Of a stretch of DNA of 60,534 nt, positions 4,236-60,534 are shown piece after piece (position 1 is the stretch's first letter; every line of letters starts with the position of its first letter). Made by a program: the position numbers and the translations under genes. Where the stretch lies: assembly GCA_031385045.1 (NCBI GenBank), contig JANNBC010000046.1, positions 1 to 60,534 of the forward strand, in the 5' to 3' direction. The DNA is from a bacterium (GTDB lineage: Bacteria; Bdellovibrionota_C; UBA2361; CALJRW01). The notes below the pieces were generated by a model. The model had not been told where the DNA came from. It saw only the letters and a program-made list of their open reading frames with translations, and did not search any database.

Positions 4236-5636
4236 CTACTGCTTTAGATAAACAGGTAATTGTCTTCCTAAATCTGACCGCATATTCAATTCTCGCAGTG
4301 ACTCCTTTGATTGATCTAGACGGTAAATTGCTTCAGCAATTAATGGTGATAAGGAGATTACCTGTAGGAAGTCACTGCGCGCAGCTTCTAATGAAATTGT
4401 GTCACTGGTATAAATGCGATCAATAGCAGAAACTTCCGCACCTTGCCTTAGGCATTTTGCCTCACGAAGTTTTATGATCGCATTATTCGAAAAAATACCA
4501 TGTGTTGCACAAAGGATGACTCGCTTCGCTCCTCGTGCTTTTAACTCAGAAGCAGCAGCAATCATTGATCCACCAGTATCAATCATGTCATCTACTAAGA
4601 TACAAGTCTTCCCTACTAAATATTCAGAATCTACTGTTAAGGTTACACTTGGGGCTTCACCTAACTCCTTTCTAAACTTACTCATAATAATTAATGGCGT
4701 ATAAATGCTAGCTTCAGTTTCTATCATTCTAGCAAAACGCTCTGCTCGCTTACTACCTCCGGCATCAGGAGAGACAACTACTAGATCCTCTCCCTCAGCT
4801 TCCATTATAGGTCTCACAAAATGATTTATTCCATCAAGATTATCAAAAGGTCCATCAAAGAAACCCTCAACTTGTCGCGCATGAAGATCTACGGAAATAA
4901 TTTGAGTTGCGCCCATGACTTTTAACATATCAGTTACCGCCTTAGCACCAATTGGCGGACGAATATCAGCACGACGATCCTGTCTAGAGTATGCAAAATA
5001 TGGCAAGATTACTGTAATTTTATGAGCTCCAGCTAACTTCAGTGCTTGTACCATTAAACAAGTCTCAACTAAGGATTCATTAACTGGCTTTTCCATGTTA
5101 ATCAGTAAAAATGCCTGCTTATCACGTACTGATTCATTAATCTGAATCTGACTTTCACTGTTAGGGAATTTATCTAGAAGAACTTGCCCTTGACTCACTC
5201 CAAGTTCAGATAAAACTCTTTGCCCTAAACGATTATTAGCACTTCCAATAAAAATAACTGAATTATCAGAAAGTCTTGGAGCATCTAAAAGTTTATCTTC
5301 CAATAAATTTTGATCCATCTGTCTTTCAAACTGGAAAGCTCTAGCCTCATTTATTCCTAATTTAATAAAGCGATCGCGACCGATATAAACGATCGCTTGA
5401 TCGGCACAGTTTAAATATTCTGTTAAAATATTCTCAACCTTTAATTGAGTTGCTGCCGGAGCTGAATCTAAGTTCTTAACTACTGATAAAATTTCTTTTA
5501 GTTTTGGAATTAGCCTTAACTCAGAAGCAGATAGTATTAACTGCTTTACTATAGAGCCAAGTGACTCATTGTTTAAATCAAGTAATTCTCTGGTTTGTTG
5601 CTCTGCTGGGGCGAAGCGGTCAAAATTGGTTACCAT
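4236..5636 (-). CDS. prs: Ribose-phosphate pyrophosphokinase with ~125-aa N-terminal extension
   Basis: PYFAYSRQDR, DLHARQVEGFFD, VVSPDAGG, LVDDMIDTGGS and ATHGIFS motifs. Confidence 0.95.
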   Translation of the reverse strand: MVTNFDRFAPAEQQTRELLDLNNESLGSIVKQLILSASELRLIPKLKEILSVVKNLDSAPAATQLKVENILTEYLNCADQAIVYIGRDRFIKLGINEARAFQFERQMDQNLLEDKLLDAPRLSDNSVIFIGSANNRLGQRVLSELGVSQGQVLLDKFPNSESQIQINESVRDKQAFLLINMEKPVNESLVETCLMVQALKLAGAHKITVILPYFAYSRQDRRADIRPPIGAKAVTDMLKVMGATQIISVDLHARQVEGFFDGPFDNLDGINHFVRPIMEAEGEDLVVVSPDAGGSKRAERFARMIETEASIYTPLIIMSKFRKELGEAPSVTLTVDSEYLVGKTCILVDDMIDTGGSMIAAASELKARGAKRVILCATHGIFSNNAIIKLREAKCLRQGAEVSAIDRIYTSDTISLEAARSDFLQVISLSPLIAEAIYRLDQSKESLRELNMRSDLGRQLPVYLKQ

Positions 5637-15015: not shown

Positions 15016-15076
15016 TTGAAATTATATTTTTTGATTTAAAATATACTATCACAATAAAAATGCTAAGAGCAGTCTA

Positions 15077-15973
15077 TTACTTAATCAGAGACCAAAGTGT
15101 CCTGGTGCTGAGTAAGATAATTAAGATACCAACAAGCAATAATAGTGTTTTAGCTTTTAATTTTTTACAAAGATAACCAGCAAATGGAGCAGCAAATATT
15201 CCTCCAAAAATTAACCCCGCAATAATTGTTGTTAACCCGCGAAGGTTCTCCCATTCATTAAGTCCTAAGAATACAGAGAAAGCTAGTGCCGTAAAAAAGG
15301 CCACATAAAATTCGGCTAAGTTAACAGAGCCGATAGCATATCTTGGCGTCCAACCAGAACTTAAAAGTGTACTATTTACTATTGGCCCCCAGCCTCCGCC
15401 TCCAATAGCATCAGCGAACCCTCCAAAAAGGGCTAAAGGAAATAACCTTTTGGTTTTTTGTTTGCTGAACTTATTTTTAAACGCCTTATAGATAATTACA
15501 AACCCCATAATCAATAAATAACCAGCAATAAATGGAGTGAGCCATTTGCCATCGACTGTGGTTGATAAAAAAGCTCCCAGAATACCTCCTATTACTCCTG
15601 GAAATACCAAACGACGAAAAAGTTTTTTATTAACATTGCCCAGTTTGTGATGGGAGAATCCAGAAATTCCTGCAGTAAAAATCTCAGCGATATGGACACT
15701 GGCACTTGCTTCTGCGGGACCGACACCAGCAGCTAATAGAAAAGTTGTGGAGCTTACGCCATAAGCCATCCCAAGAGCGCCATCTATTGTTTGTGCTCCA
15801 AAACCAACAATGGCATAAATCCAGAACTGCTTCTCTCCAAAAAAACTGAAAAAGGCAGTTAGTTTTGTTAAAATTGCTTGAGATAGTAGTAACTGGTCTG
15901 CGGAATATAAACAGATCAATAATATTACTGAGACTAAGAGTACAATTCTTAGTTTTAGTGAGTTTAGTTGCAT
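15077..15973 (-). CDS. TauE/SafE family exporter
   Basis: AQTIDGALGMAYG, DAIGGGGWGP, multiple TM helices. Confidence 0.9.
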   Translation of the reverse strand: MQLNSLKLRIVLLVSVILLICLYSADQLLLSQAILTKLTAFFSFFGEKQFWIYAIVGFGAQTIDGALGMAYGVSSTTFLLAAGVGPAEASASVHIAEIFTAGISGFSHHKLGNVNKKLFRRLVFPGVIGGILGAFLSTTVDGKWLTPFIAGYLLIMGFVIIYKAFKNKFSKQKTKRLFPLALFGGFADAIGGGGWGPIVNSTLLSSGWTPRYAIGSVNLAEFYVAFFTALAFSVFLGLNEWENLRGLTTIIAGLIFGGIFAAPFAGYLCKKLKAKTLLLLVGILIILLSTRTLWSLIK

Positions 15974-19954: not shown

Positions 19955-20103
19955 ATATAGTTATGACAAAAAGTATTTTCCGAGTATTTAAAAGTCAGTT
20001 TTGTGTTTTTTGTCATAACTATATGATTTTATTATCCCTCTGGGAGATAGTAAGCCCCAAAAAGTAATTCCCTACGGAAATTACTTTTTGGACTCACTAT
20101 ATT
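19955..20103 (-). repeat. Three-hairpin dispersed element, copy 1
   Basis: ATATAGTTATGACAAAAA...TTTTTGTCATAACTATAT; TATCCC...GGAGATA; CCAAAAAGTAATT...AATTACTTTTTGG. Aligns to the reverse complement of 38438-38586. Confidence 0.9.
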
Positions 20104-23616: not shown

Positions 23617-23964
23617 ATGACTTCTACCCTACTACAATTAATTGATAAACATTGGGCACTTTGTTTACTTGCAGCTGGAGGAATCGTCCTCACATTAGGC
23701 GATTTAGTAATGAAGAAATGGGTCACGACAGATCTGCGTACCTATTACGTTATCGGCCTTTTTATCTGGGTTATTGGACTTAATTTCCTAGCAATTTCCT
23801 TTAAGTATAAAGGCATTGCTGTAGCATCCATGATCTTTATTATTTTCAACACGATCACACTACTGCTAGCAGGGTATTTACTCTACGGCGAAAAAATTTC
23901 TATGCAAGAAATGCTTGGCATTTTTCTTGGACTTTGCTCTGTTGCCTTAATGGACTTGGCGTAA
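23617..23964 (+). CDS. SMR/DMT-type small membrane transporter
   Basis: Four TM helices, GEKIS motif. Confidence 0.7.
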   Translation: MTSTLLQLIDKHWALCLLAAGGIVLTLGDLVMKKWVTTDLRTYYVIGLFIWVIGLNFLAISFKYKGIAVASMIFIIFNTITLLLAGYLLYGEKISMQEMLGIFLGLCSVALMDLA

Positions 23965-26531: not shown

Positions 26532-27323
26532 TTATTTTTGAAGAATTCGCTCCTTGGTCAGATCTAAGTACTTACTACTTAAATCAATCCCAATAAATTT
26601 CCTTTTTTCTTGGATCGCAATAACTCCCGTTGTTCCACTACCACAAAAAGGATCCAAGATTAAGTCTCCAATATTAGAGCTAGCTAAAACAATTCGACGA
26701 AGTAGGTCGAGTGGCTTTTGAGTCGGATGATAGCCATTAATTTTTTCTGATTTTTTAGTAACAGGAATCGACCAGACACTACGCATTTGTTTATCTTGAT
26801 TTTTGAGTGGATCTTTTTGGTGCCACTCCCCTTTTTTCATTAGCTCATAATTAAAAGTATGTTTCGCCTTAGGATCTTTTTTGGCCCAGACTAATGTTTC
26901 ATGACTGGCTGTAAAATACCGACAACTAATATTGGGTGAAGCATTAGGCTTAAACCAACTAACATCATTTAAAATTTGAAAGTTACTTAGTTGTAATGCA
27001 AAAGCACATTGATAAATGGAGTGATATGTACCACTAATCCAGATTGTCCCATTTGGTTTTAAGACACGCTGGCAAGCTTGAATCCATGAGCGATGAAAAT
27101 TAAAGTCGGCTTCCACACCTTGGCTCGCATCCCACTTACCTTTATTAACAGAGACGCGTTTCCCCGATTTTACAGTAAAACCATTGTTAGAGAGGTTATA
27201 TGGTGGATCGGCAAAAATTAAATCAACTGACTCTGCTGGAATATTTTCGAGCACTTCCAAGCAATTGCCTTGATAAAGACTAAGATTTCGAGATTTGAAA
27301 TATTGTAATTTTTTTAAAGACAT
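26532..27323 (-). CDS. Beta-class amino-DNA methyltransferase, DpnA-like, orphan
   Basis: DLIFADPPYNLSNNG...VSVNKGKWD, HPTQKP, DPFCGSGTT. No endonuclease adjacent. Confidence 0.9.
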   Translation of the reverse strand: MSLKKLQYFKSRNLSLYQGNCLEVLENIPAESVDLIFADPPYNLSNNGFTVKSGKRVSVNKGKWDASQGVEADFNFHRSWIQACQRVLKPNGTIWISGTYHSIYQCAFALQLSNFQILNDVSWFKPNASPNISCRYFTASHETLVWAKKDPKAKHTFNYELMKKGEWHQKDPLKNQDKQMRSVWSIPVTKKSEKINGYHPTQKPLDLLRRIVLASSNIGDLILDPFCGSGTTGVIAIQEKRKFIGIDLSSKYLDLTKERILQK

Positions 27324-27393: not shown

Positions 27394-28371
27394 ATGAAAA
27401 GAGCATTAACTGGGATCCGTACATCTGGTGATATCCACATTGGGAATTATTTAGGAGCAATAAAACCTGCTCTTAAGCTCCAAAATGACTATCAGTGTTT
27501 ATACTTTTTAGCGGACCTACATTCACTCACTAGTCAAAAAGATGCGCTCCTGCTCCAAAAAAGCATTTACGATCAAGTCGCTCTCTGGATTGCACTTGGT
27601 CTGGACTATAAAAAACATTTACTTTACCGCCAGTCAGACTTACCTAATGTTGAGCTTTCTTGGTACTTATCCTGTGTAACCGGTGTAGGCTTTCTAGAGA
27701 AAGCTCATGCCTATAAAGATTCCCGTGCCAAAAATAAGGATGTAAATGTCGGTGTTTTCTACTATCCGATACTAATGGCCGCAGATATTCTGCTTTATTC
27801 GCCTGACGTTGTCCCTGTTGGGAAAGATCAGAAGCAACACGTGGAAATGGCACGTGACATTGCTGGTTCGTTTAATGCCACATATGGGGCTGGAGAAGTC
27901 ATCTTAAAGCAACCTGAAGTGATGATTGCCGAAGAGGTCATGTTGATTCCCGGCTTAGATGGTCAAAAGATGTCTAAAAGCTATAACAACACAATTGAGT
28001 TAATGCTCCCCGAAAAGCAACTTCGTAAAAAGATTATGTCTTTAACTACAGATTCTACTCCCCTAGAAGATCCTAAGGTTTTATCAGGTTCAGTCCTTGG
28101 AAATTTGTTTAAACTTTTTGCAAGTCAAGCTCAGTTTAATGATTTAGAAAAAAGATTGGTGGCAGGTGGCTTAGGCTGGGGTAATGCTAAAGAAGAACTC
28201 TTTCAAGCCATTAATCAGGAAATCTCAACCGCAAGAACTAAGTACGAAGCAATTCGCGCCGATCAGAAGTTTTTAGAAGATGTTCTACTAGAGGGGAAAA
28301 ACAAGGCCTGGGAGATAGCGGATCCAATTCTTAGAAAGGTGCGTGAGGCGATTGGAATATCTAAAAAATAA
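27394..28371 (+). CDS. trpS: Tryptophan-tRNA ligase
   Basis: HIGNYLGA, YPILMAADIL, VPVGKDQKQH, KMSKS. Confidence 0.97.
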   Translation: MKRALTGIRTSGDIHIGNYLGAIKPALKLQNDYQCLYFLADLHSLTSQKDALLLQKSIYDQVALWIALGLDYKKHLLYRQSDLPNVELSWYLSCVTGVGFLEKAHAYKDSRAKNKDVNVGVFYYPILMAADILLYSPDVVPVGKDQKQHVEMARDIAGSFNATYGAGEVILKQPEVMIAEEVMLIPGLDGQKMSKSYNNTIELMLPEKQLRKKIMSLTTDSTPLEDPKVLSGSVLGNLFKLFASQAQFNDLEKRLVAGGLGWGNAKEELFQAINQEISTARTKYEAIRADQKFLEDVLLEGKNKAWEIADPILRKVREAIGISKK

Positions 28372-28467: not shown

Positions 28468-28959
28468 ATGAGGAATCAGGGATTTTCTTTAATTGAACTT
28501 TTAGTAACGGTTGCTGTGGTTGGACTATTGTCCTCAATTGCTGTCGCTAATTATTCCGAATATAAGGCTAGAGCCTATGAGATGGAAGCACTAGCGCTCC
28601 TTCATAACGGTTTAACCTCAATTGAAGCATATCGAGCAAATGATATCCAAATGGATTTTTTCCGTAAATTTGTAAACCACTCCCCCGGTGGTACGATTTC
28701 CTATTTAGGAGTTTCCGACACGGAAAGTCTCTTGCCTGGATTAGGCCCTATTTCTCGTGATGCTTACTTTTTCATTCAAATCTATGGTCGACAAGCTGGA
28801 GGTAGTGCCATGTTATTGCAAGCAAATTCCGCAAATTGCAAAGGCAAGACTTATGGACCAGTTAACGGATTTCCTAATAAACGTTGGTATCGTTTTGGAT
28901 ATAATATTGAAAGCCAAATTGTTGATACAACCGTACTAAACGTTAATTGTACCTATTAA
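28468..28959 (+). CDS. Type IV pilin-like protein
   Basis: GFSLIELLVTVAVVGLL prepilin motif; C-terminal Cys pair. Confidence 0.85.
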   Translation: MRNQGFSLIELLVTVAVVGLLSSIAVANYSEYKARAYEMEALALLHNGLTSIEAYRANDIQMDFFRKFVNHSPGGTISYLGVSDTESLLPGLGPISRDAYFFIQIYGRQAGGSAMLLQANSANCKGKTYGPVNGFPNKRWYRFGYNIESQIVDTTVLNVNCTY

Positions 28960-28980: not shown

Positions 28981-30471
28981 TTAAGTTTGGATCTTTTGAC
29001 TTTTTTTCCACTCTTGAAAATCAGGTATCAGATAAAGCTTAATTAATTTTTGATCTGTACTATGCTGAACTGTATCTCTAAAACGTTCTTCGGAAATCAA
29101 ATTACGCACTTTGGCTAGGTTAGTTTCTACCTCTGCTTGAATTTTAGCTAAGATTTCTGGGGCAACATCTTTCCGAGCCTTTACTATTTCAACAGTCAAG
29201 AAGTTCTGATACTCCCCTTCTAAATGATTATCTTTTGCTGGTTTCTTACTGGTGTTGGAATTGCTTACTTTAGTAGATTCTAGGCTAAAGGTTTTTGGCA
29301 GAGCAAAATCTTCTATATTCTCGATAGCACGATAAAGGAATCCAACAGGACTAGTACTAACTAAGCTACTATTACTGGACATCAAGTAATCAAAATATTT
29401 AATCACCAACTCCATTTTACGAAGATGATAGTCCGTTCGTGACTTCAGTAACTTATCTAATTGATGCGACTTTAATCCCCGCTCCTCTAAACATTTTCGA
29501 ACTCGAGCAGTCAGACTAAGTCCCATATCTGCCGGTGACTTCACCAAAATTGCTGGTTTAGAAAGAACACTAACTGGTGGCAAATCAGCTTGAGTACTAG
29601 GTTGCTGCTGAGATCGTGGTAGTAAACTAGCTCCAGAAAGAACAATTTCTGTTTTTGAGCCCCGGCCCAAATATTCTACGGAAGAAATGAAATTAACTTT
29701 TAAGAGTTCTTCCAGTGCGGGTTCCAGTTGTTGTTTAAGTGAGCTGGCATATTTAAAATTTCTAGAAATACCTATTTTTTCATGGCAGAGTGTAAAAAGG
29801 TTAATTTTTAGTTTCGAACGATACCAGAAGTTCTTATCTAAAAAACGATAAAGTCGTTTGGAAATTGAACTATTTAAATCCAAATAAAAATCTAGATCTA
29901 GTTTCTTAATAAAACCAGATTGAAATGATTGGAAAATCTCATCACTCCAGATAAAGAAACTTGGCTTAATACGGTTTTCTCGGCCATCATTAATTTCATA
30001 GGCGTCAATTATGCCAAAGTTTTTAGTACTATGAGCCTTAGCCTCATTATCATAAAAAGCATTAGTCGCTTTAATTCGCACACCACTAAGACGATCTAAG
30101 GCTTTTTGTAGGCGGGAGTAATTCTTCCCCTCGGTTGGCCAGCGCAAAATTTTTAAAAGCTCATAACGAGTAAAGCTAACTTTTTTATTTTTAAATTGAT
30201 CTTCTACTGATAATTTTAAAAGCCCTAGTAAGACTTCATCATCTGAGGCTGTAGGTAAACCAAATTTATCAGTACCAGTAATAACCCACTCGCGGTTGAT
30301 CTCTCGCCCATTTTTATTAATTATTGTATCTTTAAATTCTAGTGTTTTAATTTTTGGATCTGCTCGATTGGATAACATGGTTAACGGAAATTCCGCTAAG
30401 TTCATTTCATCTCGTGAAATTAATGACACTCCCCCAGTGTTATCAGATATTTTTTTAGGTAGTGCAGTCAT
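28981..30471 (-). CDS. Plasmid-type replication initiator protein A (RPA family)
   Basis: RDEMNLAEFP, GLPTASDDEV, FTRYELLK, KRLYRFLDK, QLEPALEEL. Divergent from parAB across an iteron region. Confidence 0.85.
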   Translation of the reverse strand: MTALPKKISDNTGGVSLISRDEMNLAEFPLTMLSNRADPKIKTLEFKDTIINKNGREINREWVITGTDKFGLPTASDDEVLLGLLKLSVEDQFKNKKVSFTRYELLKILRWPTEGKNYSRLQKALDRLSGVRIKATNAFYDNEAKAHSTKNFGIIDAYEINDGRENRIKPSFFIWSDEIFQSFQSGFIKKLDLDFYLDLNSSISKRLYRFLDKNFWYRSKLKINLFTLCHEKIGISRNFKYASSLKQQLEPALEELLKVNFISSVEYLGRGSKTEIVLSGASLLPRSQQQPSTQADLPPVSVLSKPAILVKSPADMGLSLTARVRKCLEERGLKSHQLDKLLKSRTDYHLRKMELVIKYFDYLMSSNSSLVSTSPVGFLYRAIENIEDFALPKTFSLESTKVSNSNTSKKPAKDNHLEGEYQNFLTVEIVKARKDVAPEILAKIQAEVETNLAKVRNLISEERFRDTVQHSTDQKLIKLYLIPDFQEWKKSQKIQT

Positions 30472-30580
30472 TAATAATTTAAAAGAGAGTCCTGTAGAGT
30501 ATAATTAAGATAATTAGATCTACTAACTTTTATAGTAGTTTACAAATGTTATTTTAAGTTACTTGTAATAAGTAAGCGGG

Positions 30581-30599
30581 AATAATTCTTAGAATTATT
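30581..30599. promoter_or_regulatory. Perfect palindrome upstream of rep (candidate operator)
   Basis: AATAATTCT-T-AGAATTATT. Confidence 0.4.
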
Positions 30600-30619
30600 A
30601 GATAGTTAGACGAGAATAT

Positions 30620-30854
30620 TTATTTGAAATCACGATGATACTTATCTGTAATCACGATAAAGCTTACTTCCAGGTACTATGAAAATTATCTCAATCGCCC
30701 ATAGTAGTTATTACCAGTCCCGATAAAAATACTTCCAAAGCACAAGCATTCCTTATCTAAACTCACGATATCAATCAATAATTTATTTCTAAGCACTAGC
30801 AAATAGTATTTTACTTCAAATCACGATATGAGTATATTAACTAGAATCACAAAT
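30620..30854 (+). repeat. Iteron-like direct repeats
   Basis: 17-mers, consensus about TTAYYTNNAATCACGAT, at 30620, 30642, 30664, 30686, 30708 (22-bp period), then about 30729, 30753, 30783, 30811, 30838. Confidence 0.8.
30773..30785 (+). promoter_or_regulatory. IHF consensus site
   Basis: AATCAATAATTTA matches WATCAANNNNTTR. Confidence 0.45.
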
Positions 30855-30872
30855 AAAATAAAAACCTAGCAA

Positions 30873-30885
30873 TATCAATATCTTA
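30873..30885 (+). promoter_or_regulatory. IHF consensus site with upstream A-tract
   Basis: TATCAATATCTTA matches WATCAANNNNTTR and lies between the iterons and the GATC cluster. Confidence 0.6.
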
Positions 30886-30900
30886 TGCTTATGGGAAATT

Positions 30901-30966
30901 GATCGGTTTTGAACCAGATCTGTTTTGATCCAATTCTCGATCTAAAGTAGATCTTATATAGTGATC
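30901..30966. other. GATC cluster / candidate unwinding element
   Basis: GATC at 30901, 30917, 30927, 30939, 30950 and 30963. Confidence 0.7.
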
Positions 30967-30994
30967 TTAGATAAGTTTTTTTGAGGCAAACAAA

Positions 30995-31783
30995 GTGGCA
31001 GTCATCTTAGGAGTATTAAATCAAAAGGGTGGAGTAGGTAAAACTACAACTAGTGTTAATCTTGGAGCAGCAATTGCCAATTTAGGTAAGAAAACTTTGC
31101 TGATTGATATTGATGCCCAAAGTAATTTAACGACGCATTTAGGCTTAAGTAATACTGATGAAATTGCCAATAATCCGGAAGCGCCTTTCGTTCCTGAGTA
31201 TACAATCTATGATGTTTTAAAAGGAACGAAAGAGCTTAAAGATGTGATCATTAACCGCTCTGAAAATATCGACGTTGTCCCTTCTAGCTTGTTACTCAGT
31301 GCTGCTGACTTAGAATTAGGAGGCGTTGTTGGGCGAGAGCTTTTACTAAAACGTGCCTTAACTAAGATTAAAGATCAGTATGATTATATTGTGATTGATT
31401 GCCCCCCTGCCCTTGGCTTGCTTAGTTTAAACGCCTTGGCCGCTATTGATAAAGTAATTGTTCCTGTACAAAGTGAATACTTAGCTCTCCATGGAGTTCG
31501 TCAGTTATTAGATACAATCGATCAAGTTCGGAGTATCTACAATCCAAATTTAGAAGTTGGTGGTGTTTTAATCTGCTTACATGATAACCGAAAAAAGTTA
31601 GCTAGAGCCGTCGCCAAAACTATTCGTGACTATTTTGGACAATTGGTTTTTGATGCGGTAATAAGAACAAATGTCGCTCTAGCGGAGGCTCCAGCAAATG
31701 GCCAATCCATTTTTGAGCATGCTCCAAAGTCATCAGGTGCAGACGATTACGAAGCTTTAGCAAAGGAAGTTATTAATGGTTAA
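30995..31783 (+). CDS. parA: ParA/Soj partition ATPase
   Basis: NQKGGVGKTT, DIDAQSN, IDCPPALG, LAEAP. Confidence 0.95.
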   Translation: MAVILGVLNQKGGVGKTTTSVNLGAAIANLGKKTLLIDIDAQSNLTTHLGLSNTDEIANNPEAPFVPEYTIYDVLKGTKELKDVIINRSENIDVVPSSLLLSAADLELGGVVGRELLLKRALTKIKDQYDYIVIDCPPALGLLSLNALAAIDKVIVPVQSEYLALHGVRQLLDTIDQVRSIYNPNLEVGGVLICLHDNRKKLARAVAKTIRDYFGQLVFDAVIRTNVALAEAPANGQSIFEHAPKSSGADDYEALAKEVING

Positions 31784-32624
31784 GAATATTACGTTTTCTA
31801 ATAATCCCCTATTTTCTGGTCCAAGTTTAAAAGATCGGGAAATTGTAAATGTTCCTTATAAGTTGATACCTCTAGACCAAATTGAAAGAGACCCTAATCA
31901 GCCAAGGGTTAATTTTGATGAAGCGCAGTTAGCTGAGTTAACAACTTCGATTAAGACTTATGGAGTTATCTCTCCTATTCTAGTTAAGCCTAATAAGAAC
32001 TCTAAATATACTTTAATTGCTGGAGAAAGACGTTTAAGAGCAAGTACAAATGCAGGGCTAACATCAATTCCAGCAATTATTGATTCAACAGACGATCAGA
32101 CTGGTGAAAGAACATTAGCAATTCAATTAGTTGAAAATTTACAGCGTTCTGAGTTAACACCTCTGGAGAAAGCCTATGCAATTTCTACACTTAAGGAATC
32201 AAACAAGTTAAGTATTAGAGATATTGCTGATAAGTTAGGTATATCTAAAAGTTCTGTTCAAAGATCCCTTGATTTACTAGATTTACCAGATGACTTATTA
32301 AATGCTCTAAGACAAGGCGCGTCTGAATCAAAAATTATGTTATTAGCTAAGATTGAGGATCCTAAAGAGCGCGCACAATACTTACAGGAAGTTGATACAC
32401 TTACTAGAAGTGATTTATCCCAGAAGCTTAATAAGAAATCAGCAAAGCTTAATAAGACGACTTTATCTGCTGAGGATCAAAGGATTGCCGATGAGATTCG
32501 AAGAGCTATTGGATTGAAAATTATTTTGTCTCGAAAGTCACCAAAATCGCCATCTGGCTCTGTTAAAATTAGTTTTCATAACGATTCCGATCTTCAGCAT
32601 GTTTTTAGAAAGTTAATTTCCTAA
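31776..32624 (+). CDS. parB: ParB/Spo0J partition protein
   Basis: QPRVNF, IAGERRLRA (CTP motif), ENLQR, HTH. Confidence 0.95.
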   Translation: MVKNITFSNNPLFSGPSLKDREIVNVPYKLIPLDQIERDPNQPRVNFDEAQLAELTTSIKTYGVISPILVKPNKNSKYTLIAGERRLRASTNAGLTSIPAIIDSTDDQTGERTLAIQLVENLQRSELTPLEKAYAISTLKESNKLSIRDIADKLGISKSSVQRSLDLLDLPDDLLNALRQGASESKIMLLAKIEDPKERAQYLQEVDTLTRSDLSQKLNKKSAKLNKTTLSAEDQRIADEIRRAIGLKIILSRKSPKSPSGSVKISFHNDSDLQHVFRKLIS

Positions 32625-32630
32625 GGACTT

Positions 32631-32647
32631 TGTCCCACGGTGGGACA
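32631..32647. promoter_or_regulatory. parS-like palindrome 1
   Basis: TGTCCCAC-G-GTGGGACA, perfect arms, 6 bp after the parB stop. Confidence 0.75.
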
Positions 32648-32666
32648 GTTTTAGCTTAGTCATTTT

Positions 32667-32683
32667 TGTCCCACGGCGGGACA
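32667..32683. promoter_or_regulatory. parS-like palindrome 2
   Basis: TGTCCCAC-G-GCGGGACA, one mismatch, starting 36 bp after site 1. Confidence 0.72.
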
Positions 32684-32689
32684 CTCTTT

Positions 32690-33970
32690 ATGAAAGGTAT
32701 AGATTTCTTAAATTCTCTTGCTAAGTGGGACAATAAATCCAAATTTGGCCTAGATAATATTAAAAAGGTGCTTTTTTATCTTAATAACCCTCAAGATCGT
32801 CCAAAATCTATTCATATAGGTGGTACAAACGGAAAAGGAACTACTTCAGTAGCAATTGCTTCAATTTTAGGAGCCGCAGGATATAATGTTGGACTAAATA
32901 CTTCTCCTCACTTAGTTAGACTTAATGAAAGGTTTATTATTAATGGAGTTGAAGCTAGTGATCAGCAAATTTCAGATTCTGCTTTGAAAGTTCAAGGTGC
33001 AATTAATTATACAAACACCAGCCTAAGTTATCATGAAGCAATTACTGCGACTGCCTTTGTTTTATTCCAAGACCTAGATTGGATAGTAATTGAAGTTGGG
33101 CTTGGAGGAAGATTGGACGCTAGTAATGTCTTAGAGAAGCCTAATGCTGTTATTATCACATCAATTAGCCTAGATCATGAATTGATTCTTGGAGATACTA
33201 TTGGCAAGATTTCTAAGGAGAAGGCTGGGATAATCAAAGATAGTACTATACTTGTTCTTGGAGAACTTCCTGATGATGCAAATAATGTAATTAAGGATGT
33301 TGTGGCAGATAAGTCTCAGACGAATGTCTTCCAATTTACCAAGAACTTTAGTTATAAGAAATTAGAGCAAGGGATTGAATTCCAGTCCCCAATGATGACA
33401 TTTCCACTCAGTACTTATCAGTATAAAAATCATACTAAAGCAATTAATGACTGCTTAGCAATTGAGACATGTTTATTACTAGGACTTAATAGATATATCG
33501 AGCAGGGTATTAACAATTATTACTGGCCAGGAAGGTATGAAACTATAGTGTATCAAGATAATAAGTTTATTGTTGATGCGGCTCATAATCCAGCTTCAAT
33601 TGATGCCTTGGTAGAGTATTTGCAAATTAACTATCCAGATAAGACAGATTTTCAAATTATTTTTGCTGCCTTAGACAGTAAGAATTGGAAATATTTTATT
33701 GATCAATTAAAAACTTATATAGTGCATTGGCATATAGTTTTAGCAGATAGTGACGTGGCAGTTAAGACTAATCAGATAGGGGACTATTTATCGGGTTTGG
33801 GAATAAATAATTATCAAGAGTACGGGCTAGACTATTCCACAGCGATCCTTAATGCTTGTCAGAGCCCATTAAATGAAACGATTGTAGCTGGGTCAATGTA
33901 TATGATTGGAGGAGTCAAACAGCTTCTGCATGATTTACCTAAGGATTATTGGAAAAAGATAACTCATTAA
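32690..33970 (+). CDS. folC: Folylpolyglutamate/dihydrofolate synthase
   Basis: HIGGTNGKGT, TSPHL, EVGLGGRLDASN, WPGR, DAAHNP. Start ATG 32690. Confidence 0.95.
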   Translation: MKGIDFLNSLAKWDNKSKFGLDNIKKVLFYLNNPQDRPKSIHIGGTNGKGTTSVAIASILGAAGYNVGLNTSPHLVRLNERFIINGVEASDQQISDSALKVQGAINYTNTSLSYHEAITATAFVLFQDLDWIVIEVGLGGRLDASNVLEKPNAVIITSISLDHELILGDTIGKISKEKAGIIKDSTILVLGELPDDANNVIKDVVADKSQTNVFQFTKNFSYKKLEQGIEFQSPMMTFPLSTYQYKNHTKAINDCLAIETCLLLGLNRYIEQGINNYYWPGRYETIVYQDNKFIVDAAHNPASIDALVEYLQINYPDKTDFQIIFAALDSKNWKYFIDQLKTYIVHWHIVLADSDVAVKTNQIGDYLSGLGINNYQEYGLDYSTAILNACQSPLNETIVAGSMYMIGGVKQLLHDLPKDYWKKITH

Positions 33971-33977
33971 TATTATT

Positions 33978-34832
33978 ATGAAAAATCCTTATTTTAAACG
34001 ATTAGAGCAAGCCCTAGAAGGTCTTGTTAATCAACTTCCAGAGCAGGCCAATTTACAGGAGTCAGCTAGATATATGCTCTTAGGGCAAGGGAAACGACTT
34101 CGTCCAAGTATTACAATTGCAATCCTTGATGATTTAAAATTATTGAACGAAGCACATTTTCACAGTGCGCTCAGTGTGGAGATTTTACACACTGCCAGTT
34201 TAATTCATGATGATCTTCCAGCTCTTGATAATGATGATTACCGCAGAGGAAAGCTTAGTTGTCATAAAAAATACTCAGAGTCAGTAGCAATTCTACTCGG
34301 TGATTATTTACAAACGTGGGCACTCGCGATTCTTAGCGAATACACACTGCCAGAACACTTAAAGGAGTTAAATAGAATAGTGACTTCTGCCTATCAAAGT
34401 GTTTGTTTAGGACAAATGCTAGACATGGGGAGCTCTATTACTCCTGATTTTACTTTAATTAATCAACTTAAAACATCAGCACTATTTGCTTGTAGTTTTC
34501 AGATTGCCGGAATTCAGGCCAATTGGAACTCGGAGCACATTGAAAAATTAAGGCAAGTTGGTGAAGATTTTGGCATAATTTTTCAACTAATAAATGATTT
34601 TAAAGATTGCTTTATGTCTCCAGAAGCAACGGGGAGAAGGGATTCTAGCGATTATAAAAATATGAAGATTACTTCAGTTACAGAGTTTCGTTCTGCTTCT
34701 GAAGCCAAAAGTTTTCTAGATCATCAGATCGTAATTTGGAATAAGAAATTTGAATTATTAAAGTTGGAACTCAATCAGCCATTTTTAAATTTATCACAAT
34801 TGATTGATTCAGTTCTACAAGCAGAGTCCTAG
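33978..34832 (+). CDS. ispA: Polyprenyl (farnesyl) diphosphate synthase
   Basis: GKRLRP, SLIHDDLPALDNDDYRRG, GQMLD, KTSALF. Confidence 0.85.
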   Translation: MKNPYFKRLEQALEGLVNQLPEQANLQESARYMLLGQGKRLRPSITIAILDDLKLLNEAHFHSALSVEILHTASLIHDDLPALDNDDYRRGKLSCHKKYSESVAILLGDYLQTWALAILSEYTLPEHLKELNRIVTSAYQSVCLGQMLDMGSSITPDFTLINQLKTSALFACSFQIAGIQANWNSEHIEKLRQVGEDFGIIFQLINDFKDCFMSPEATGRRDSSDYKNMKITSVTEFRSASEAKSFLDHQIVIWNKKFELLKLELNQPFLNLSQLIDSVLQAES

Positions 34833-36975: not shown

Positions 36976-37521
36976 ATGCAGATACAGGGCGGTAAGGCAT
37001 TTTCTTTAATTGAGCTTTTAGTTACCACTGCAATAATAGGGATACTTTTTAGTACTTCTGTTGCGGGCTATAAAAGATATAAGGCAGCCGCTGTCCAGGC
37101 CGGACTAATCAGTATGACTGATAATTTTTTAAAAAATGCCTTACTTTTACAGGTTGCATTTCCTTCGGAAGAGGTGGACTTTCAATATCAATTTACCACT
37201 GGTCAAAATACTCCAACGATTCTATTTCAGACTTATAATCATGGAGTAGCTATAATGATTAGCACTGCTGAATTATAAAAAATATTTTCTCCTAGTTTTT
37301 TTACCCCAGCAAATGATATTAGATTTTATATAGGTTATTCATATAGGTTACCCGTCAGCTATAATAATACTAGAGAATCTTTCTCTGCCAAAGTCTGTTC
37401 TTGTCAACTATCCCCTCCAAAGAATTGCTATTATAGGACTCAATATTTGTTAAAAAATGGCCTTTCAGATCAACAAGATAGGTGGATCAGTGATACTCAA
37501 TCTCAGTTCTTGTGTCCTTAA
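36976..37521 (+). pseudogene. Type IV pilin interrupted by one in-frame TAA
   Basis: AFSLIELLVT motif. After TAA 37276-37278 the frame stays open for 80 codons (KIFSPSFF...KVCSCQ...NCYYR...FLCP*). Confidence 0.75.
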
Positions 37522-38437: not shown

Positions 38438-38586
38438 AATATAGAAAGTCCAAAAAGTAATTTAGATAAGGAAATTACTTTTTGGTGCTTTCTATCCCCC
38501 GGAGGGATAATAAAATCATATAGTTATGACAAAAAACAAATTGATCTATTTAACTTTTACGTAATTTATTTTTTGTCATCACTATA
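38438..38586 (+). repeat. Three-hairpin dispersed element, copy 2
   Basis: Inverted homolog of 19955-20103; stems conserved, loops diverged. Confidence 0.9.
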
Positions 38587-51112: not shown

Positions 51113-54100
51113 TTAACCCATCAAAACATGGACCTTTTGCAGATTAGTTAAATTAGCTTGCAATTGAATAAATCCATCTAGAATCACAATCCCATTTAAT
51201 TTAAGTGCGCGGACTCCTCGTTCTACTCTACCCGGATTTTCAACTTCAATCTGATAAGTAGTCCCCTGATAGATGTAAGTAATTTGAAAGCCGGGCCAAT
51301 TTTTGGGGATACAAGGATTAATTGTTAGAACATTACCGGCGATATTAAATCCTAAGAGATGATTTAGTCCTGCTTGATAAAGCCATCCACAAGATCCTGT
51401 ATACCAACTCCAACCACCGCGGCCAACATAGGGTTCTTGACTATAGACATCCCCACAAGTGACATAAGGTTCTGTGCGGTATCTATCTACAGCTTCAGGT
51501 GTAGATGTATGATTAATGGGATTAATCATAGAAAATAACTGATGCGCTTTATCGCCTAGACCTAACTTGGCAGTAGCAATAATTGCCCAAGTTGCCGCGT
51601 GGGTATATTGACCACCATTCTCTCTAATGCCGGGAGGATATGCTTTAATATAACCAGGATCTGTATTTCCAGAATCAAAAGGTGGCAATAGTAAAGGCAT
51701 GAGATTATTGTCATAGTCTACAAGCTTATCTAGTAGTGATTCCATGGCTTGCTTCGCATGTGCAGGAGGAGCCGCCTCAGAAATCACTGCCCAACTTTGA
51801 GAGATTGAATCAATTTTACATTCTTCATTTTGATTACTGCCTAAGGGCGTGCCGTCATCAAAGAATGCTCGTCGATACCACTCTCCGTCCCAACCATGTT
51901 CTTCTAGAGCAAGTTGTAATTGCCGGATTTTATTTTCAAATTCCAAAGTAATAGCAATTTCTTCACGAACTTTTAAGATCGGAATCCAATTTTTAAGAAT
52001 ATCAATTGTAAACCAGGCCAACCAAACACTCTCACCCTTACCTTGATCGCCAACATGATTTAGACCATCATTCCAGTCTCCAGCACCGATTAATGGTAAG
52101 CCATGATCTCCAGAAGTAAAACCTTTTCTAATTGCTAGTAAGCAATGTTGATAGACAGAGTCTGTCTTCTCTGAAATTTTTGGCTCAAAATATGAGCTCA
52201 TTTGTCCTGTATCTAAACTTGGACCTTCCAGATAATTACTCACTTCTTCTAATACTGCATAATCATTAGTGACTGCTAGATACTTAGCAGTGACATAAGG
52301 TAGCCATAAAAAATTATCAGAAATTTTAGAACGAATTCCACGGCCTGTTGGTGGATGCCACCAATGTTGCACATCTCCTTCAATAAATTGTCTAGTCGTT
52401 GCTCTAACAATCAAATCACGAGTGATCTCTGGTTTTGTGTAAATTAAAGCTAGTCCATCCTGTAACTGATCTCTAAAACCATATGCTCCACCACTTTGAT
52501 AAAATCCAGTTCTTCCATAAATTCGCGCTGATAAACATTGATATAGTAACCATGAGTTCATCATAATATCAAAACTTCGATCTGGAGTAGTTACTTGGAT
52601 TTTATTGGTAACATCTTTCCAATATTTTTCTACTTGAACCAGAGAGTCTTCTTTGGAAGAGATTAAACTATGCTGACTAGCTATTTTCCTAGCGGTCACT
52701 AAACTAGGAGCAACGCCCATAAAAAATAGCACTTCCTTTTCTTCTTCTGGTTTTAGTGTGATTGATACTTGTAACGCACCACAAGAGTCTAGCCCCGTTC
52801 CGGTTTTTCCTGATAAATTAATACTCTTACTTAAGACTCCGAACTTAGGAAGTTTACCTTGTTTGCTTTCTAATCCGCTAGTTAATGCGCTTGGACAAGA
52901 GAGATTATTATTGCGTCCAACAAACTCTTGCCGACTAGTAGTGTAGGAATCAATATTTAGATTAGAGCCAAGGTAGACTAATGATTCTGAAAATTCATTA
53001 TTATAAGAATTCTCTACGGTTAGAATCTCATTTTTAGAATCAAAGTTAGTAGAAAGATGAGGTAGACTTTGATGCCTTAGTACACCTAAAACAAATTCTA
53101 CATATAAGTAAATTTCAATTTCACGAGGACGCGTATCCAGATTCTTTAATTTAAGACTCCACCATTTGATACTTTCCTTTGTTGATCCTGAAATAACTAA
53201 AGTACTTTTAATTAGTGATGCTTCAGAATTAAATTGTGAGTACCCCGGATTATGTTCAACTTGGACAGAAGTATTACTACTGACGGGAAGTGAAGTTGGA
53301 CACCAAAAGGCACCATTACTAACATCTCTAATATAAATTACCTCACCTGCTTGATCGGAAACTGGATCATTATTCCATGTAGTTAATCTATTTTCTCGGC
53401 AATTTTCTGACCAAGTATAACCACTTCCAGTTTCTGAAATAGTAAATCCAAAATTAGGATTAGCAATAACATTAATCCATGGAGCTGGCGGAAGAGAGCT
53501 CAAGTTAACATTCATGGAGTATGCTTTACCAGCCTTACTAAATCCACCAATGGCATTAGGGAATTCTAGTTGTGGTAATTTTCTTCGGGCAATTGATTCA
53601 CTGCTAACATTAGAATCTTTAAAGAAATACTTAGGGAGATTTAAATTTATTGGCTCGTTTCCTGTAGTTTTAATTGTCGCTAATTGAGTGGATAAACTGC
53701 CTTTCTCGCCATTTAAAACAACACGGGCAACAGATTGCAGTAATAGGTATTCGGAATCTGAAAGTTGTTTAAGATTTCGCGGAAAAATACCACCTTTCGC
53801 ATTTAAAATATTTAAAGCGTATTTATTATTAAGCAGTTGCTCCAAGCTATTATTTAAATTTTGAAGGTAACCATCAGCATTCTCGTTAAGGATTAATAAA
53901 TCAAAATTGACCGATCTATTAGCTAGATACTTATGGGCGCTTAACAGTTCTTCTACTAATTTTAAATGTAGAGAATCATTGATCCTTACTAGAATAATTG
54001 GCAGATCTCCCGAAATTCCAAATCGCCATAGCCCTGATTGAGTTAACTTATTCTTTGTAATTAATGAGCCAGCTGAACGTAATTTGGGATGTTGAAAGAA

Positions 54101-57100
54101 TAAGGCATTTCCAAGTCGTTGATATAAATGACTATGTCTGATTGATACTTGTTCTGTTCGAAACTCGATATTACTTTTGCTCCAAGCCATTTCAAAAGAA
54201 TGTTTGATACTCCGATGATCCTGATAGCGATTCCCAAGTGCAAGGACATCTTCCTTTGTTCTTCCAATTAAATTAATCACTGTGATCATTTGTGATCGAT
54301 TTGCTTCAACCTCAATAGTAGTTCTTAACGAGGCAATTGGATCTAAGACTTGCCCAACTGTATTCCCTAAACTTTTTGCCTGATCAAAAATGATTGGATT
54401 ATTAATGCTTCGGCCTCGACCAATAAAGGCTTCGCGCGAAGTCTCATATTCAATTGGTGTCCAAACCATATTGATGCTTAACATATGAAGCATGTATAAA
54501 TCCGGCTCGCTTTGCGAATGCTTCCGCCTTCTAAAGATTAATGCTCCTAGATCTGTCTCAAATTCACTCTCCAGAAATATTTTAGAATATGCCTGATGGA
54601 CCTCATCAGCATTAATCTTGTTTAAAACAATTTCAGAAAAAGTTGTTAATTGTAATGTTCTAGTTCGATTAGTTGTATTAGTAATAGTAATTCGGCGAAG
54701 CTCGGAATGATCTTCTGGTGAAACGGTAATATCCGTTTGAATTATAATCCCAAAATCTTTTCTCTTAAATTCAATTTTTTCAGCATTAAAAATTACCTCA
54801 TAAAAATCAGGCTCAACTTTTGTTGGCTGATAAGTAATTGACCAAATTTTATTACTATCTAAATCTTTGATAAAAATATAAGTGCCATGAGCATTCTCTA
54901 GTGCATCTTCTTTCCACCGAGTAAGTGCAAATTGATCTGGTAGATAACTATAGCCACTACCAGCATTATCAATCATCAGATTATAGTAGCCATTAGAGAT
55001 TACCCGTGTTCGTGGCAGTGGTGTATGAGGAGTTCTAATAATCTCACTCCAATCTTCTTGCGGAAAGCGTTCCTCTTGAAATAATTCATGCTCTTCGGCT
55101 TTATGTGGAATTGTAATTGGGCTGCGATCTGGAAATTTTTCTTGCAGTAAAAGTTCTACTGATTTAATCAAAGGATCGCGGTGGAACCTTTTTTGCATGA
55201 TATTATTATGTAGCAGATTATTGATTGCGAGTAGGCTCATCCCTTGGTGGTGAGCCATGAAGGATTGAATAATATGTCCAGTTTCATTCTGATTGAGGCG
55301 TTCTTTGGTATAATCAATTGCTTCGAAAAATCCATATTTCCCTTTTAGTCCTAAGGATTCTAAACGTTCTAGATTAATTAGTGCTTCTCGTGGATCTACC
55401 TGCAGCGCTAGGAAAGTGGAGTAGGGAGAAATAACTAAATCGTCAGATAACCCTCGCTTTAGTCCCGTACCAGCAACACCAAAGGCTCGATATTGATATG
55501 TATGTTCAAAATCAACCTTAGCATATGCTGATTCAGAAATGCCCCAGGGGATACCAAGACTTGCTGTATATTTACGTTGTGTTTTAACTACTACTTTATA
55601 TGACTCATGAAGCAGTGTATTAGGAAAATCTTTGGTCAGCAGTAGCGGCATTAAGTATTCAAAGATTGTTCCACTCCAAGAGAGTAAGGTTTTGCCAGAA
55701 GTTGTTTTTGTAAGTGGACGTCCGAGGCTAAACCAATGTTCTTGAGGGATATCTTGCTTAGCAATTGCTACTAATGAGGCTAATCGGGATTCTGAGGCTA
55801 GCAAATCATAATAAGAATTATCATAACGAGCAGAGCTGACATCATAACCAATATAAAAAAGTTTTTTTCGGCTATTATATAAAAACTCAAAATGAATCTC
55901 GTTAATTAGTTTCGTGCAAAGATCTTGTAAGAAGTTTAATTCATGCCGTTGGATTTCATGTTCTTCTAAATTAGACCCTAATTCCTTGGCAAAGTCCTGA
56001 CAGGCACTTTTTAGAGCGATCAAATTTCCTATAAAATTTCCACTATCTACAGTTGAAATGTATTTTGGCTCTAATGGCAAAAGGTTTTTCAGATCATACC
56101 AGTTATAAAAGTGTCCATTATAGCGCTCTAGTTTTCCTAAGGTTTCAAATGATTTGGTGAGTTTTGCAATTGCATCAGGAATACTTAAGAATCCTAAATC
56201 AACTGCTGAGATAATTGCTAAAAAATGCAGACCAATATTAGTCGGGGAAGTTCGATAAGCAATGACACTTTGAGGATAAAATTGGATATTATCAGGAATT
56301 AAATAATTACTATCAGCTGTTACAAGGTCATCAAAAAACTTCCAGGTATCTAGTGCTGTCTGCTTTAGTGAAGCAGTCTGTTTTTTTGTAAGCAAGTATT
56401 TACTTTGACTAGCTTCTTGAGTCGTCCAGAAAATAATTAATGGAGCCAGAATCCAAAGACTAAGGATCGGCAATGCAGAGAGTAAATTAGCGGGCTGAAC
56501 TATAAGAATTAAATAGAATAAAATAATTCCAGCTAAAAAAGATGGTAGTAGGTTTATAAAAATTGCAATCAAATCATTTCGTAGGCGATCTTCTTCTTGC
56601 CTAGCAGTTTCCCAGATTAATAAATTTTTACGGGAAATATATACGCGGTAAAGTGTCACACTGATAGCTTGCAACATAGAAAGTGTTTGGGAGGGAAGAG
56701 TTGCAAACATAATTAGTGCTTGCAGGGAGTTCCTGAGAAACCCTTTGCGCAGTTCTGATAAGTAACCACTGATTGAAATTCCAATTGGTGGAGCAAATAG
56801 AATACTTGCTAAGGGTGCATAAACCGAAAATGCTAGGGTCATCAGAATTAATCCCGTTAGAACTACGGGATTACCAATCGAAGTAAACCAACAAAAGATT
56901 AATAGGGCAAAGCAACTTGGTGCTAGTAAGCTACGTCTTAAATTATCAATTAATTTCCAATGTCCTAGTGGAGATAATGGTGATTTTACTAGATTATTAT
57001 TGGCATCAGGAATTTTTTTAAACATCCAAGGTAGTAATTGCCAATCTCCACGAACCCAACGATATTGCCGACTAGCAAATGTTTTATAAGCTTTTGGAAA

Positions 57101-60373: not shown

Positions 60374-60534
60374 TGGATGATCAATATAATACGGAAGAGC
60401 CAGGCTCGAATGTCACTTACCTTCGTAATACTAATTTTGTTTTCGAAGAGCTAAGTGATCGAAATTAATCTACTTTTTTAACTAATTGCGAAGAGCATAA
60501 TTTGTCTGCATTTTATGATGATTACCTTTATTTT

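Follow-up and report, generated by a model that had tools for sequence, protein, structure and literature searches.

The window analysed here, a stretch of 60,534 bp from a genome of 2.83 Mb (61 contigs, 95% complete), harbours a replication and partition locus in which the gene for a Rep initiator is divergently oriented from parA and parB (Table 1). The original prediction had read these genes from the sequence alone, with iterons, IHF sites and a GATC cluster between them and parS-like sites behind parB, and had proposed either a chromid origin or a domesticated plasmid initiator that runs the main chromosome. The RPA-type initiator was confirmed by a PF10134 profile match. Its divergence from parA was confirmed, as was the order of the neighbouring genes: folC and ispA directly follow parB, and trpS lies one gene, encoding a pilin, beyond rep. 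Of 81 related loci, 53 have folC no more than 10 kb from rep. No part of the 21-38 kb region of the window is repeated elsewhere in the assembly, and thus no misjoin is indicated there.

Table 1 Features of the replication and partition locus and its neighbours (positions in the window)
Feature	Position	Strand	Remarks
Orphan beta-class DNA methyltransferase, DpnA-like	26532..27323	-	63-64% identity to methylases of G114 and G027 that lie next to Dam-like and DpnII genes
trpS	27394..28371	+	Sole copy in genome; near rep in 12/81 loci
Rep initiator, 496 aa	28981..30471	-	PF10134 (RPA), E 1.2e-21 at aa 20-243
AT-rich conserved element adjoining rep start	30500..30580	.	72-82% A+T in 40-bp windows
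Iteron array	30619..30828	+	22-bp period, core (T/G/A)CACGA(T/G); strong and degenerate copies
Two IHF-consensus matches	30773-30785, 30873-30885	+	0.11 expected
Six GATC	30901-30966	.	Only 6-in-70-bp cluster in genome
ParA2, 262 aa, short Soj-like ATPase	30995..31783	+	AAA_31, E 1.6e-59
ParB2, 282 aa, Spo0J-type, altered helix-turn-helix	31776..32624	+	TIGR00180, E 6e-44
Two parS2 palindromes, TGTCCCAC-N-GTGGGACA	32631-32647, 32667-32683	.	At no other place in genome (<=2 mismatches)
folC	32666..33970	+	Sole copy in genome; likely start ATG 32690
ispA-like polyprenyl synthase	33978..34832	+	Near rep in 58/81 loci

Initiator, origin elements and partition genes

Rep comprises a tandem winged-helix core (~aa 40-288), a helical domain 3 (312-395) and a domain 4 (408-494). 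The best fold match of its predicted structure (pLDDT 79.8) was to domains 2-3 of RctB (Foldseek E 8.6e-9; VIA Z 10.8, rmsd 8.0, 235 aligned), with further matches of this predicted model to pi and RepE. A sequence search against the PDB gave no match at E 1, and Pfam recognized RPA and Rep3_N only; Rep is not an RctB-family protein. A profile of domain 4 matched 31 of 36 close homologues and 7 of 114 distant ones, and an Atlas search with aa 308-496 returned just hypothetical proteins (best 0.90). Judged by sequence, domain 4 appears to be largely specific for this lineage. The nearest named Reps are encoded by Planctomycete plasmids of 25-130 kb (36-41% identity), and homologues occur on Rubrobacter plasmids, some of them annotated as TrfA. 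Matches include 48 Deinococcus and 35 Thermus records, and both control genomes from that phylum match as well.

When the whole genome (2.83 Mb) was scanned with a matrix trained on other genomes, the rep-parA gap gave the sole cluster of at least three iteron sites in 600 bp, which bears out the iterons of the original prediction. Strong 19-mers lie at 30619, 30641, 30752 and 30810, degenerate copies at 30663, 30707 and 30729 (in the 22-bp register) and also at 30782, and an inverted iteron is found at 30957-30975, upstream of parA. On this strand the core occurs 290 times in 68 origins, compared to 17.2 times in shuffles. The AT-rich element has invariant columns at 30523-30577 in an alignment of eight sequences, and a 9-mer of a related element is present in 41 of the 68 origins; it may act as unwinding element, as promoter-operator of rep, or both. 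A perfect DnaA box is indeed lacking in the gap, but six are scattered elsewhere in the window.

The IHF sites and the GATC cluster are present here but are not conserved. The IHF consensus was matched in 9 of 68 origins, and the sites were rejected as conserved origin parts on this ground. Six GATC per 100 bp were found in 2 of 68 origins, the cluster region being common to the closest locus (L033) only, and GATC is neither over- nor under-used genome-wide (O/E 0.98). Neither Dam (D12) nor DpnII was found in this genome, which is 95% complete. The orphan DpnA-like methylase, present in 5 of 78 genomes, may well have GATC specificity. Lineage-wide Dam/GATC control as in Vibrio was rejected in view of the rarity of the cluster and the methylase and the lack of a D12 Dam here.

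The genome has a second ParAB with canonical parS, on contig C11, which is distinct from ParAB2/parS2. ParA2 shares 44% identity with ParA1 of C11 and ParB2 31% with ParB1; matches of ParB2 in a plasmid collection show 31-50% identity over varying lengths. The parS-like sites reported behind parB proved to be two palindromes unique to the locus, which differ from parS1 of this genome by one base per half-site and a 1-bp spacer. At least one parS2 occurs in 61 of 68 loci, and parS2 adjoins Rep in eight of nine genomes; it is absent from G041.

Strand bias and the dnaA origin

The raw GC skew of the window has its minimum at 23,863 and is then flat to ~31 kb, and a test on fourfold sites was weak after splitting by gene strand. 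Because fourfold-site skew is confounded by gene strand, a leading/lagging codon model was used instead. This model placed a strand-bias switch exactly between rep and parA, with an lnL gain of 98.5, and another exactly at dnaA on contig C2, with a gain of 442, against a baseline of at most 5.9 on 19 training contigs. Contig C2 carries dnaA-dnaN-recF-gyrB with two DnaA boxes between dnaA and dnaN. The absence of dnaA noted in the original prediction is therefore true of the window but not of the genome. On the strength of sequence data, the rep-parA gap behaves as a working bidirectional origin that is not the main origin of the genome. A third origin-like switch was found on C17, and only one strong terminus, on C54. 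A dif search with a consensus motif gave nothing above background at the termini. The GC content of the window (36.0%) resembles that of the other large contigs (35-38%). In an assembly of 61 contigs, separateness of the replicons is no more than probable for this genome, and orthology with contig C3 of G016 gave no clean split of its contigs between replicons.

Distribution and replicon structure in relatives

The lineage is an uncultured bacterial branch. Rep is present in 85 of 89 genomes of the order and in all 73 high-quality genomes of the phylum-level group, which is probably UBA2361 (Bdellovibrionota_B); dnaA was found in 54 of the 55 order genomes of high quality. In a quick tree, 34 Reps form one clade (SH-aLRT 100) on a long branch, with six of seven multi-member families unbroken. 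Rep is mostly single-copy, some relatives having extra, more distant copies. Skew is negative to the left and positive to the right of the rep-parA gap in 34 of 40 related loci. A dnaA-linked origin elsewhere, with the block absent from relatives, had been named as evidence against the original prediction; such an origin exists, but the block is kept in nearly all relatives, with its own skew switch.

In G061 the Rep replicon is physically separate from the dnaA chromosome. Contig C1 (3,256,849 bp), with dnaA and 16S, is closed, its last and first bases joining in register within a tRNA-derived tandem repeat. Contig C2 (1,866,914 bp), which carries Rep, is an open contig that ends in an IS and begins in a cut gene. 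A search for the missing part of this gene was negative, and no link was seen in the first 3 kb of a 21-kb third contig. On each contig the terminus lies roughly opposite the origin (for C2 at 1.53-1.56 Mb, antipode 1.52 Mb), as seen in skew profiles that are partial for G061, G041 and G009 (for G061 the sampling covered ~0.5 of the 1.87 Mb of C2 and 0.4 of the 3.26 Mb of C1). The codon model is too weak for fine origin placement in G061, and it gave the wrong sign for one sample of C2 (900 kb). The only dnaB, replicative dnaE and thrS of the genome lie on C2, and C1 holds folC and trpS. The two contigs have a GC content of 56.4 and 56.9%, and their codon use differs by 0.0090, compared to 0.0096 between the halves of C1.

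G041 consists of one contig of 2.28 Mb (82% complete) with dnaA, one origin and one terminus; its closure is supported by the geometry of the skew and by a single ORF that spans the junction. No Rep, trpS, thrS or infB was found in it, and its dnaA contig carries dnaB, dnaE and folC. Set beside the folC and trpS of C1 in G061, this indicates that the gene content of the replicons is not fixed. The skew along a 709-kb contig of G016 reaches its minimum at Rep (position 692,386), and contig C3 of this genome carries dnaE, dnaB, dnaK, tyrS, cysS, thrS, gltX, rplS, rpsP and mreB. The contig ends of G016 share repeats, so that fused and separate layouts both fit; contig ordering failed.

These data also bear on an alternative, a single chromosome with two working origins. 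It would have arisen by fusion of the Rep replicon to the dnaA chromosome, either in this genome or in some branches of the lineage, and with both origins still firing it would have four replichores. Natural chromosome fusions have been described for Vibrio cholerae (PMC6284228). With arms of 589 and 695 kb for dnaA and of 650 and 709 kb for Rep, G016 fits a fused circle equally, the shared repeats are at the ends of C1, C2 and C3, 16S is found on both sides, and dnaB, dnaE, trpS and folC change sides between lineages, as repeated fusion and resolution would produce. Such a fusion is nevertheless unlikely: C1 of G061 closes on itself without Rep and each contig has its own near-antipodal terminus, G041 is a single dnaA contig devoid of Rep and several essential genes, and two complete, different ParABS systems have been retained. 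Rep and dnaA share a contig in none of the 78 order genomes having both, most of which are too fragmented for this to carry much weight.

That Rep runs the main chromosome in place of DnaA, the second proposal of the original prediction, is refuted by the dnaA origin on C2, with its strand-bias switch and two DnaA boxes, and by the separate ParAB with canonical parS. Although the gap and window look as this proposal would have them, and the Rep side of G016 is about half of the genome and may carry rRNA, a separate strand switch marks dnaA both here and in G016, G041 and G061, and fusA-tuf lies on the dnaA contig in the latter three, which makes the proposal highly improbable. The plasmid-borne nearest Reps and the extra distant copies might suggest that the block is an inactive plasmid integrated amid chromosomal genes, or what is left of one, or that a plasmid contig was binned with this genome. 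This is equally hard to maintain, as strand bias flips at the locus, Rep is near-universal with a vertical pattern, the contig bears the sole trpS and folC, and neither integrase nor transfer families (among the 47 of 48 ORFs of at least 100 aa in the window that were scanned, in agreement with the original prediction), nor att ends, nor a patchy spread as in an integrated plasmid or ICE were found.

A probable second chromosome and its possible mode of replication

The block at 28981..32683 very probably represents ori2 and the partition locus of a second chromosome (chromid) that is ancient and occurs throughout the lineage, having been inherited from the root. The chromid origin of the original prediction is thereby supported: an intact iteron-type initiator, iterons and a dedicated ParABS coincide with a strand-bias switch, a separate DnaA origin and a further ParABS are present in the same genomes, and essential single-copy genes lie on the Rep replicon. 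Chromids have been defined by plasmid-type replication, core genes and chromosome-like composition, and the eight phyla named in one list of them do not include this lineage (PMC12456017). The Rep replicon shares these traits with the chromids of Pseudoalteromonas, Leptospira, Burkholderia and Rhizobiaceae: it has a plasmid-type initiator and origin, its own partition system, sole core genes and a composition near that of the main chromosome. Surveys describe chromids mostly as genus-level traits (PMC13342612). Pseudoalteromonas chromids amount to 19-51% of the main chromosome (PMC7858055), the Rep replicon to 57% in G061 and, if separate, ~90% in G016. No published description of this replicon was found in the literature searched.

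The locus resembles ori2 of Vibrio cholerae in having an iteron origin between initiator and parAB, a private parS and an RctB-like Rep fold with an extra C-terminal domain, which in RctB has been reported to serve coordination (PMC8565311). However, Rep is just 13-14% identical to RctB, its spread covers a phylum-level group and not one family, and dnaB and dnaE lie on the Rep replicon in G061 and G016. In Vibrio ori2, Dam-methylated GATC lies inside the iterons; the iteron core here is without GATC, and no Dam was found. As to a crtS-type trigger on the main chromosome, the genome shows no second cluster of iterons, though such a trigger may look quite unlike one. The tandem winged-helix fold (VIA Z 9.8 and 9.1) and 22-bp iteron period are shared with the plasmids F (RepE), R6K (pi) and RK2 (TrfA), from which the locus differs by a megabase replicon of chromosome-like composition with sole essential-gene copies, a Soj-like ParA and a Spo0J-like ParB. 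PF10134 likewise links it to the RPA replicons of Planctomycetes plasmids (RepA) and of Deinococcus and Thermus, but this Rep, which has become fixed throughout the lineage, stands in a clade of its own and has a domain 4 that is for the most part private.

By analogy to the RepE/pi/RctB family, Rep monomers would bind the 22-bp iterons on one helix face, and iteron-bound Rep would melt the adjoining AT-rich element and load DnaB of the host; its own promoter would be repressed by Rep as well. ParB2 would load at parS2, a site that ParB1 is expected to ignore, and the two replicons could thus segregate independently. It may be speculated that domain 4 ties origin firing to the cell cycle. Equally speculative is a control of the origin or of the parA promoter, in this genus, through methylation of GATC by the orphan enzyme encoded near rep.

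With only slightly more for it than against it, a wider reading is that two chromosomes of nearly equal size have existed in this phylum-level lineage from its root onwards, one with DnaA and one with an RPA-type Rep. The latter would make up 36-48% of the genome and hold the genes for the replicative helicase, the replicative polymerase and tRNA synthetases, and in some cases rRNA. Core genes would have been swapped by fusion and resolution, and the private Rep domain would time the second origin. Second chromosomes are usually regarded as genus- or family-level traits on which essential genes are scarce. If one is indeed fixed across 35 GTDB families, with dnaB and dnaE aboard in distant members, it would be among the oldest known. 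One circular contig from this lineage, as in the 82% complete G041, can be just one chromosome of two. If the reading holds, comparison within the lineage could address how a plasmid initiator comes under cell-cycle control and by what route core genes reach a second replicon.

Structure and activity of the origin block

The block comprises rep, coding for an initiator of the RPA family (Rep), and a divergently oriented parA-parB pair, separated from rep by a gap of 523 bp. The studied genome measures 2,828,434 bp in 61 contigs and is 94.9% complete. All elements claimed in the original prediction were found where it had placed them, and the PF10134 search proposed there gave a match to Rep (see table). 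Iterons were located with a matrix trained on 383 sites, all from other genomes. Weaker copies accompany the strong ones in a 22-bp register, and a whole-genome search with this matrix found no second iteron cluster in the studied genome. In 68 origins, one strand carries 290 copies of the iteron core, compared to 17.2 in shuffled sequences, and most copies are spaced by 22, 44 or 66 bp. A palindrome 3' of parB (parS2) is unique to that site in the studied genome, is present at 61 of the 68 loci and, in 8 of the 9 whole genomes examined, adjoins Rep. The predicted GATC cluster, the sole one of its kind in this genome, and the predicted IHF matches are indeed present, but neither is a general property: only 2 of the 68 origins have six GATC per 100 bp, and 9 contain an IHF match. 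Matches to DnaA-box, IHF, parS and dif motifs refer to their general consensus sequences.

Features of the window (contig C61 of the studied genome)
Feature	Position	Strand	Remarks
Dispersed repeats of ~150 bp	1-148, 19956-20103, 38438-38586, 60383-60534		Many genomic copies; those at both window ends match other contig ends
1036-aa protein	1119-4229		Only clear Pfam match MutS domain V, near C-terminus; adjoins DUF58-like gene and AAA ATPase
Ribose-phosphate pyrophosphokinase	4236-5636		N-terminal extension of 120 aa; three paralogues in genome
DpnA-like methylase	26532-27323		Two genes beyond rep
Pilin-like genes	28468-28959, 36976-37278		Type IV N-terminal motifs; ~30 such genes scattered genome-wide
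Rep	28981-30471	minus	PF10134, E 1.2e-21
Strong iterons (n = 4)	30619, 30641, 30752, 30810		Matrix search
2782-aa GH94/glucoamylase protein	51113-59461		Layout as in proteins of cyclic beta-1,2-glucan synthase type

The block is an active origin. Raw skew, for which the original prediction named an origin at about 30.6-31 kb as support, changes from negative to positive in the window, its floor being flat from 24 to 31 kb; fourfold sites agreed overall, yet weakly within each gene strand. Training on 19 uniform contigs gave a codon model of leading versus lagging genes whose best switch fell precisely in the gap that divides rep from parA, with a lnL gain of 98.5 (at most 5.9 on the training contigs). 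Of the 40 loci that offer 7 kb of sequence in each direction from the gap, 34 have negative skew to its left and positive skew to its right. In the related genome G016, a fully read 709-kb contig has its skew minimum at 692,386, at Rep, and a 650-kb arm running from Rep to a terminus at 41.6 kb. At locus L261 (G009:C17, 346-352 kb) there are frameshifts, probably sequencing errors, in rep, parA and parB, and skew still flips sharply from -0.17 to +0.17.

A third origin-like switch was found in the studied genome on contig C17 near 15 kb (~14.9-15.8 kb, gain 115-118), between pilin genes. Because it coincides with exact overlaps, at 15031-15169 and 15309-15430, with the ends of contigs C20 and C34, and no Rep or iteron cluster was found at the switch, the data suggest an inversion or a misjoin at an assembly junction.

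Separate or fused replicons

The Rep block most likely resides on a separate replicon, and is quite probably a chromid (second-chromosome) origin, as one alternative of the original prediction had it: the block is active in its own right, dnaA has a separate origin, and in the relative G061 the dnaA replicon closes without Rep. G061 consists of three contigs of 3,256,849, 1,866,914 and 21,428 bp (C1 to C3). C1, carrying dnaA, 16S, fusA-tuf, infB, trpS and folC, is a closed circle, since its last bases continue into its first in exact register within a ~200-bp tandem repeat behind a tRNA gene; this evidence covers C1 only. At the junction (L220:19200-20000, L168:1-77) the tRNA gene is followed by about four 200-bp repeats, each carrying the 3' end of that gene. 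Sampled profiles (C1, 20 stretches; C2, 26 stretches) placed the C1 terminus at 440-483 kb (dnaA antipode 439 kb). On C2, Rep lies at 587 kb, and the terminus was placed at 1.53-1.56 Mb, close to the antipode of Rep at 1.52 Mb. C2 holds the only dnaB, the only thrS and the only close dnaE of this genome (the C1 paralogue is 29% identical), and codon use of both contigs is indistinguishable.

G041, a single contig of 2,283,970 bp (82% complete), carries dnaA with one origin and one terminus (24 samples). Rep, parS2, trpS, thrS and infB were not found in it, while each turned up in all the remaining genomes of the respective search (8 or 9); G041 thus shows what would be expected of chromosome 1 without its partner. 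The case for closure of this contig consists of its skew and of one ORF that spans the junction, and it could instead be a linear part. Its folC lies at 679 kb, 22 kb from parB1, whereas the usual place is behind parB2.

It is unlikely that both origins work on one fused chromosome, given the G061 circle and the G041 dnaA contig, both lacking Rep. Counting against separate replicons are the one strong terminus seen in the studied genome (C54, 203.6 kb) and the differing placement of core genes, dnaB accompanying Rep in G016, G061 and G009 and dnaA in G041; thrS accompanies Rep in the former three. The G016 contigs (544, 1,252, 709, 26 and 113 kb; dnaA on C2, Rep on C3) share repeats at their ends that fit one two-origin circle as well as two circles of ~1.37 and ~1.26 Mb. 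Among 40 scanned of ~130 conserved proteins, C3 also carries dnaE, dnaK, tyrS, cysS, gltX, rplS, rplI, rpsP, mreB, rodA and efp. G016 has two 16S genes (C1 433 kb, C2 1,099 kb), one likely on the Rep side, which, if the layout is separate, places rRNA on the second replicon.

The Rep block is not the main origin, and the other alternative, a main chromosome run by a domesticated plasmid initiator, is contradicted by contig C2 of the studied genome with dnaA-dnaN-recF-gyrB (dnaA found by search, the others recognised from translations), a codon-model switch at dnaA (gain 442) and two DnaA boxes after dnaA, and by contig C11, which has another ParAB pair together with canonical parS. Of the 89 order genomes, 80 had a DnaA hit; for the 55 high-quality ones the figure is 54.

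Proposed mechanism

A structure model of Rep (pLDDT 79.8) best matched the fold of RctB domains 2-3 (VIA Z 10.8, rmsd 8.0, 235 aligned), followed by pi and RepE. Among named sequences, RepA proteins from plasmids of Planctomycetes come nearest. By analogy with the established behaviour of such initiators, Rep would bind the iterons at a spacing of two helical turns, unwind the AT-rich element adjoining rep and load DnaB. Since parS2 and the parS1 of the studied genome differ in one base of each half-site and in a 1-bp spacer, and ParB2 differs from ParB1 in the recognition helix, the two partition systems would be kept apart.

A profile of Rep residues 408-494 matches 31 of 36 close and 7 of 114 distant homologues, compared to 33 and 64 for residues 312-395. 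It may be speculated that the 408-494 region times the origin, by likeness to the RctB tail (PMC8565311). The methylase shares 63-64% identity with enzymes that G114 and G027 encode in DpnII-type clusters, but it stands alone in the studied genome, where Dam or DpnII was not found. It also adjoins rep in L033, the only other locus with six clustered GATC. A local methylation control of recent date is plausible.

Distribution and inheritance

One of the related loci belongs to a genome that PMC8103865 assigns to Bdellovibrionota_B, class and order UBA2361 (on the history of the class, see PMC13200544), and the lineage is therefore probably UBA2361. Within the order, 85 of the 89 genomes have Rep. 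At the phylum level, 92 of 96 genomes with a completeness of 85% or more have it, among them all 73 of high quality, every phylum genome returned being of the same class. The predicted synteny recurs in relatives: of 81 loci, many of them truncated at a contig end, 73 have parA within 10 kb of rep, 70 parB, 58 ispA, 53 folC and 12 trpS. Flagellin-like genes, recognised from sequence, lie near rep in 26 of the 81 loci (just downstream in L037, L038, L045, L076 and others). In a quick unrooted tree, a branch with SH-aLRT 100 separates 34 Reps from 39 distant homologues (P0037-P0079, >230 aligned residues, <52% identity); 6 of 7 multi-member families were unbroken, and that of the window was split without strong support. 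Extra Rep copies with 34-46% identity (G001:C31 and C40, G032:C429, G051:C21, G040:C78, G057:C33, G084:C23) probably belong to same-family plasmids carried by those hosts and are candidates for the donor group.

No paper describing this replicon was found in the literature searched, which was mainly open-access. Bdellovibrio is absent from the main text of PMC12456017 and PMC13342612, whose supplements may list replicons. The genome counts and the tree indicate that the Rep block is lineage-wide and inherited. Chromids and iteron origins were already known; what is new is the reach, size and cargo of this one.
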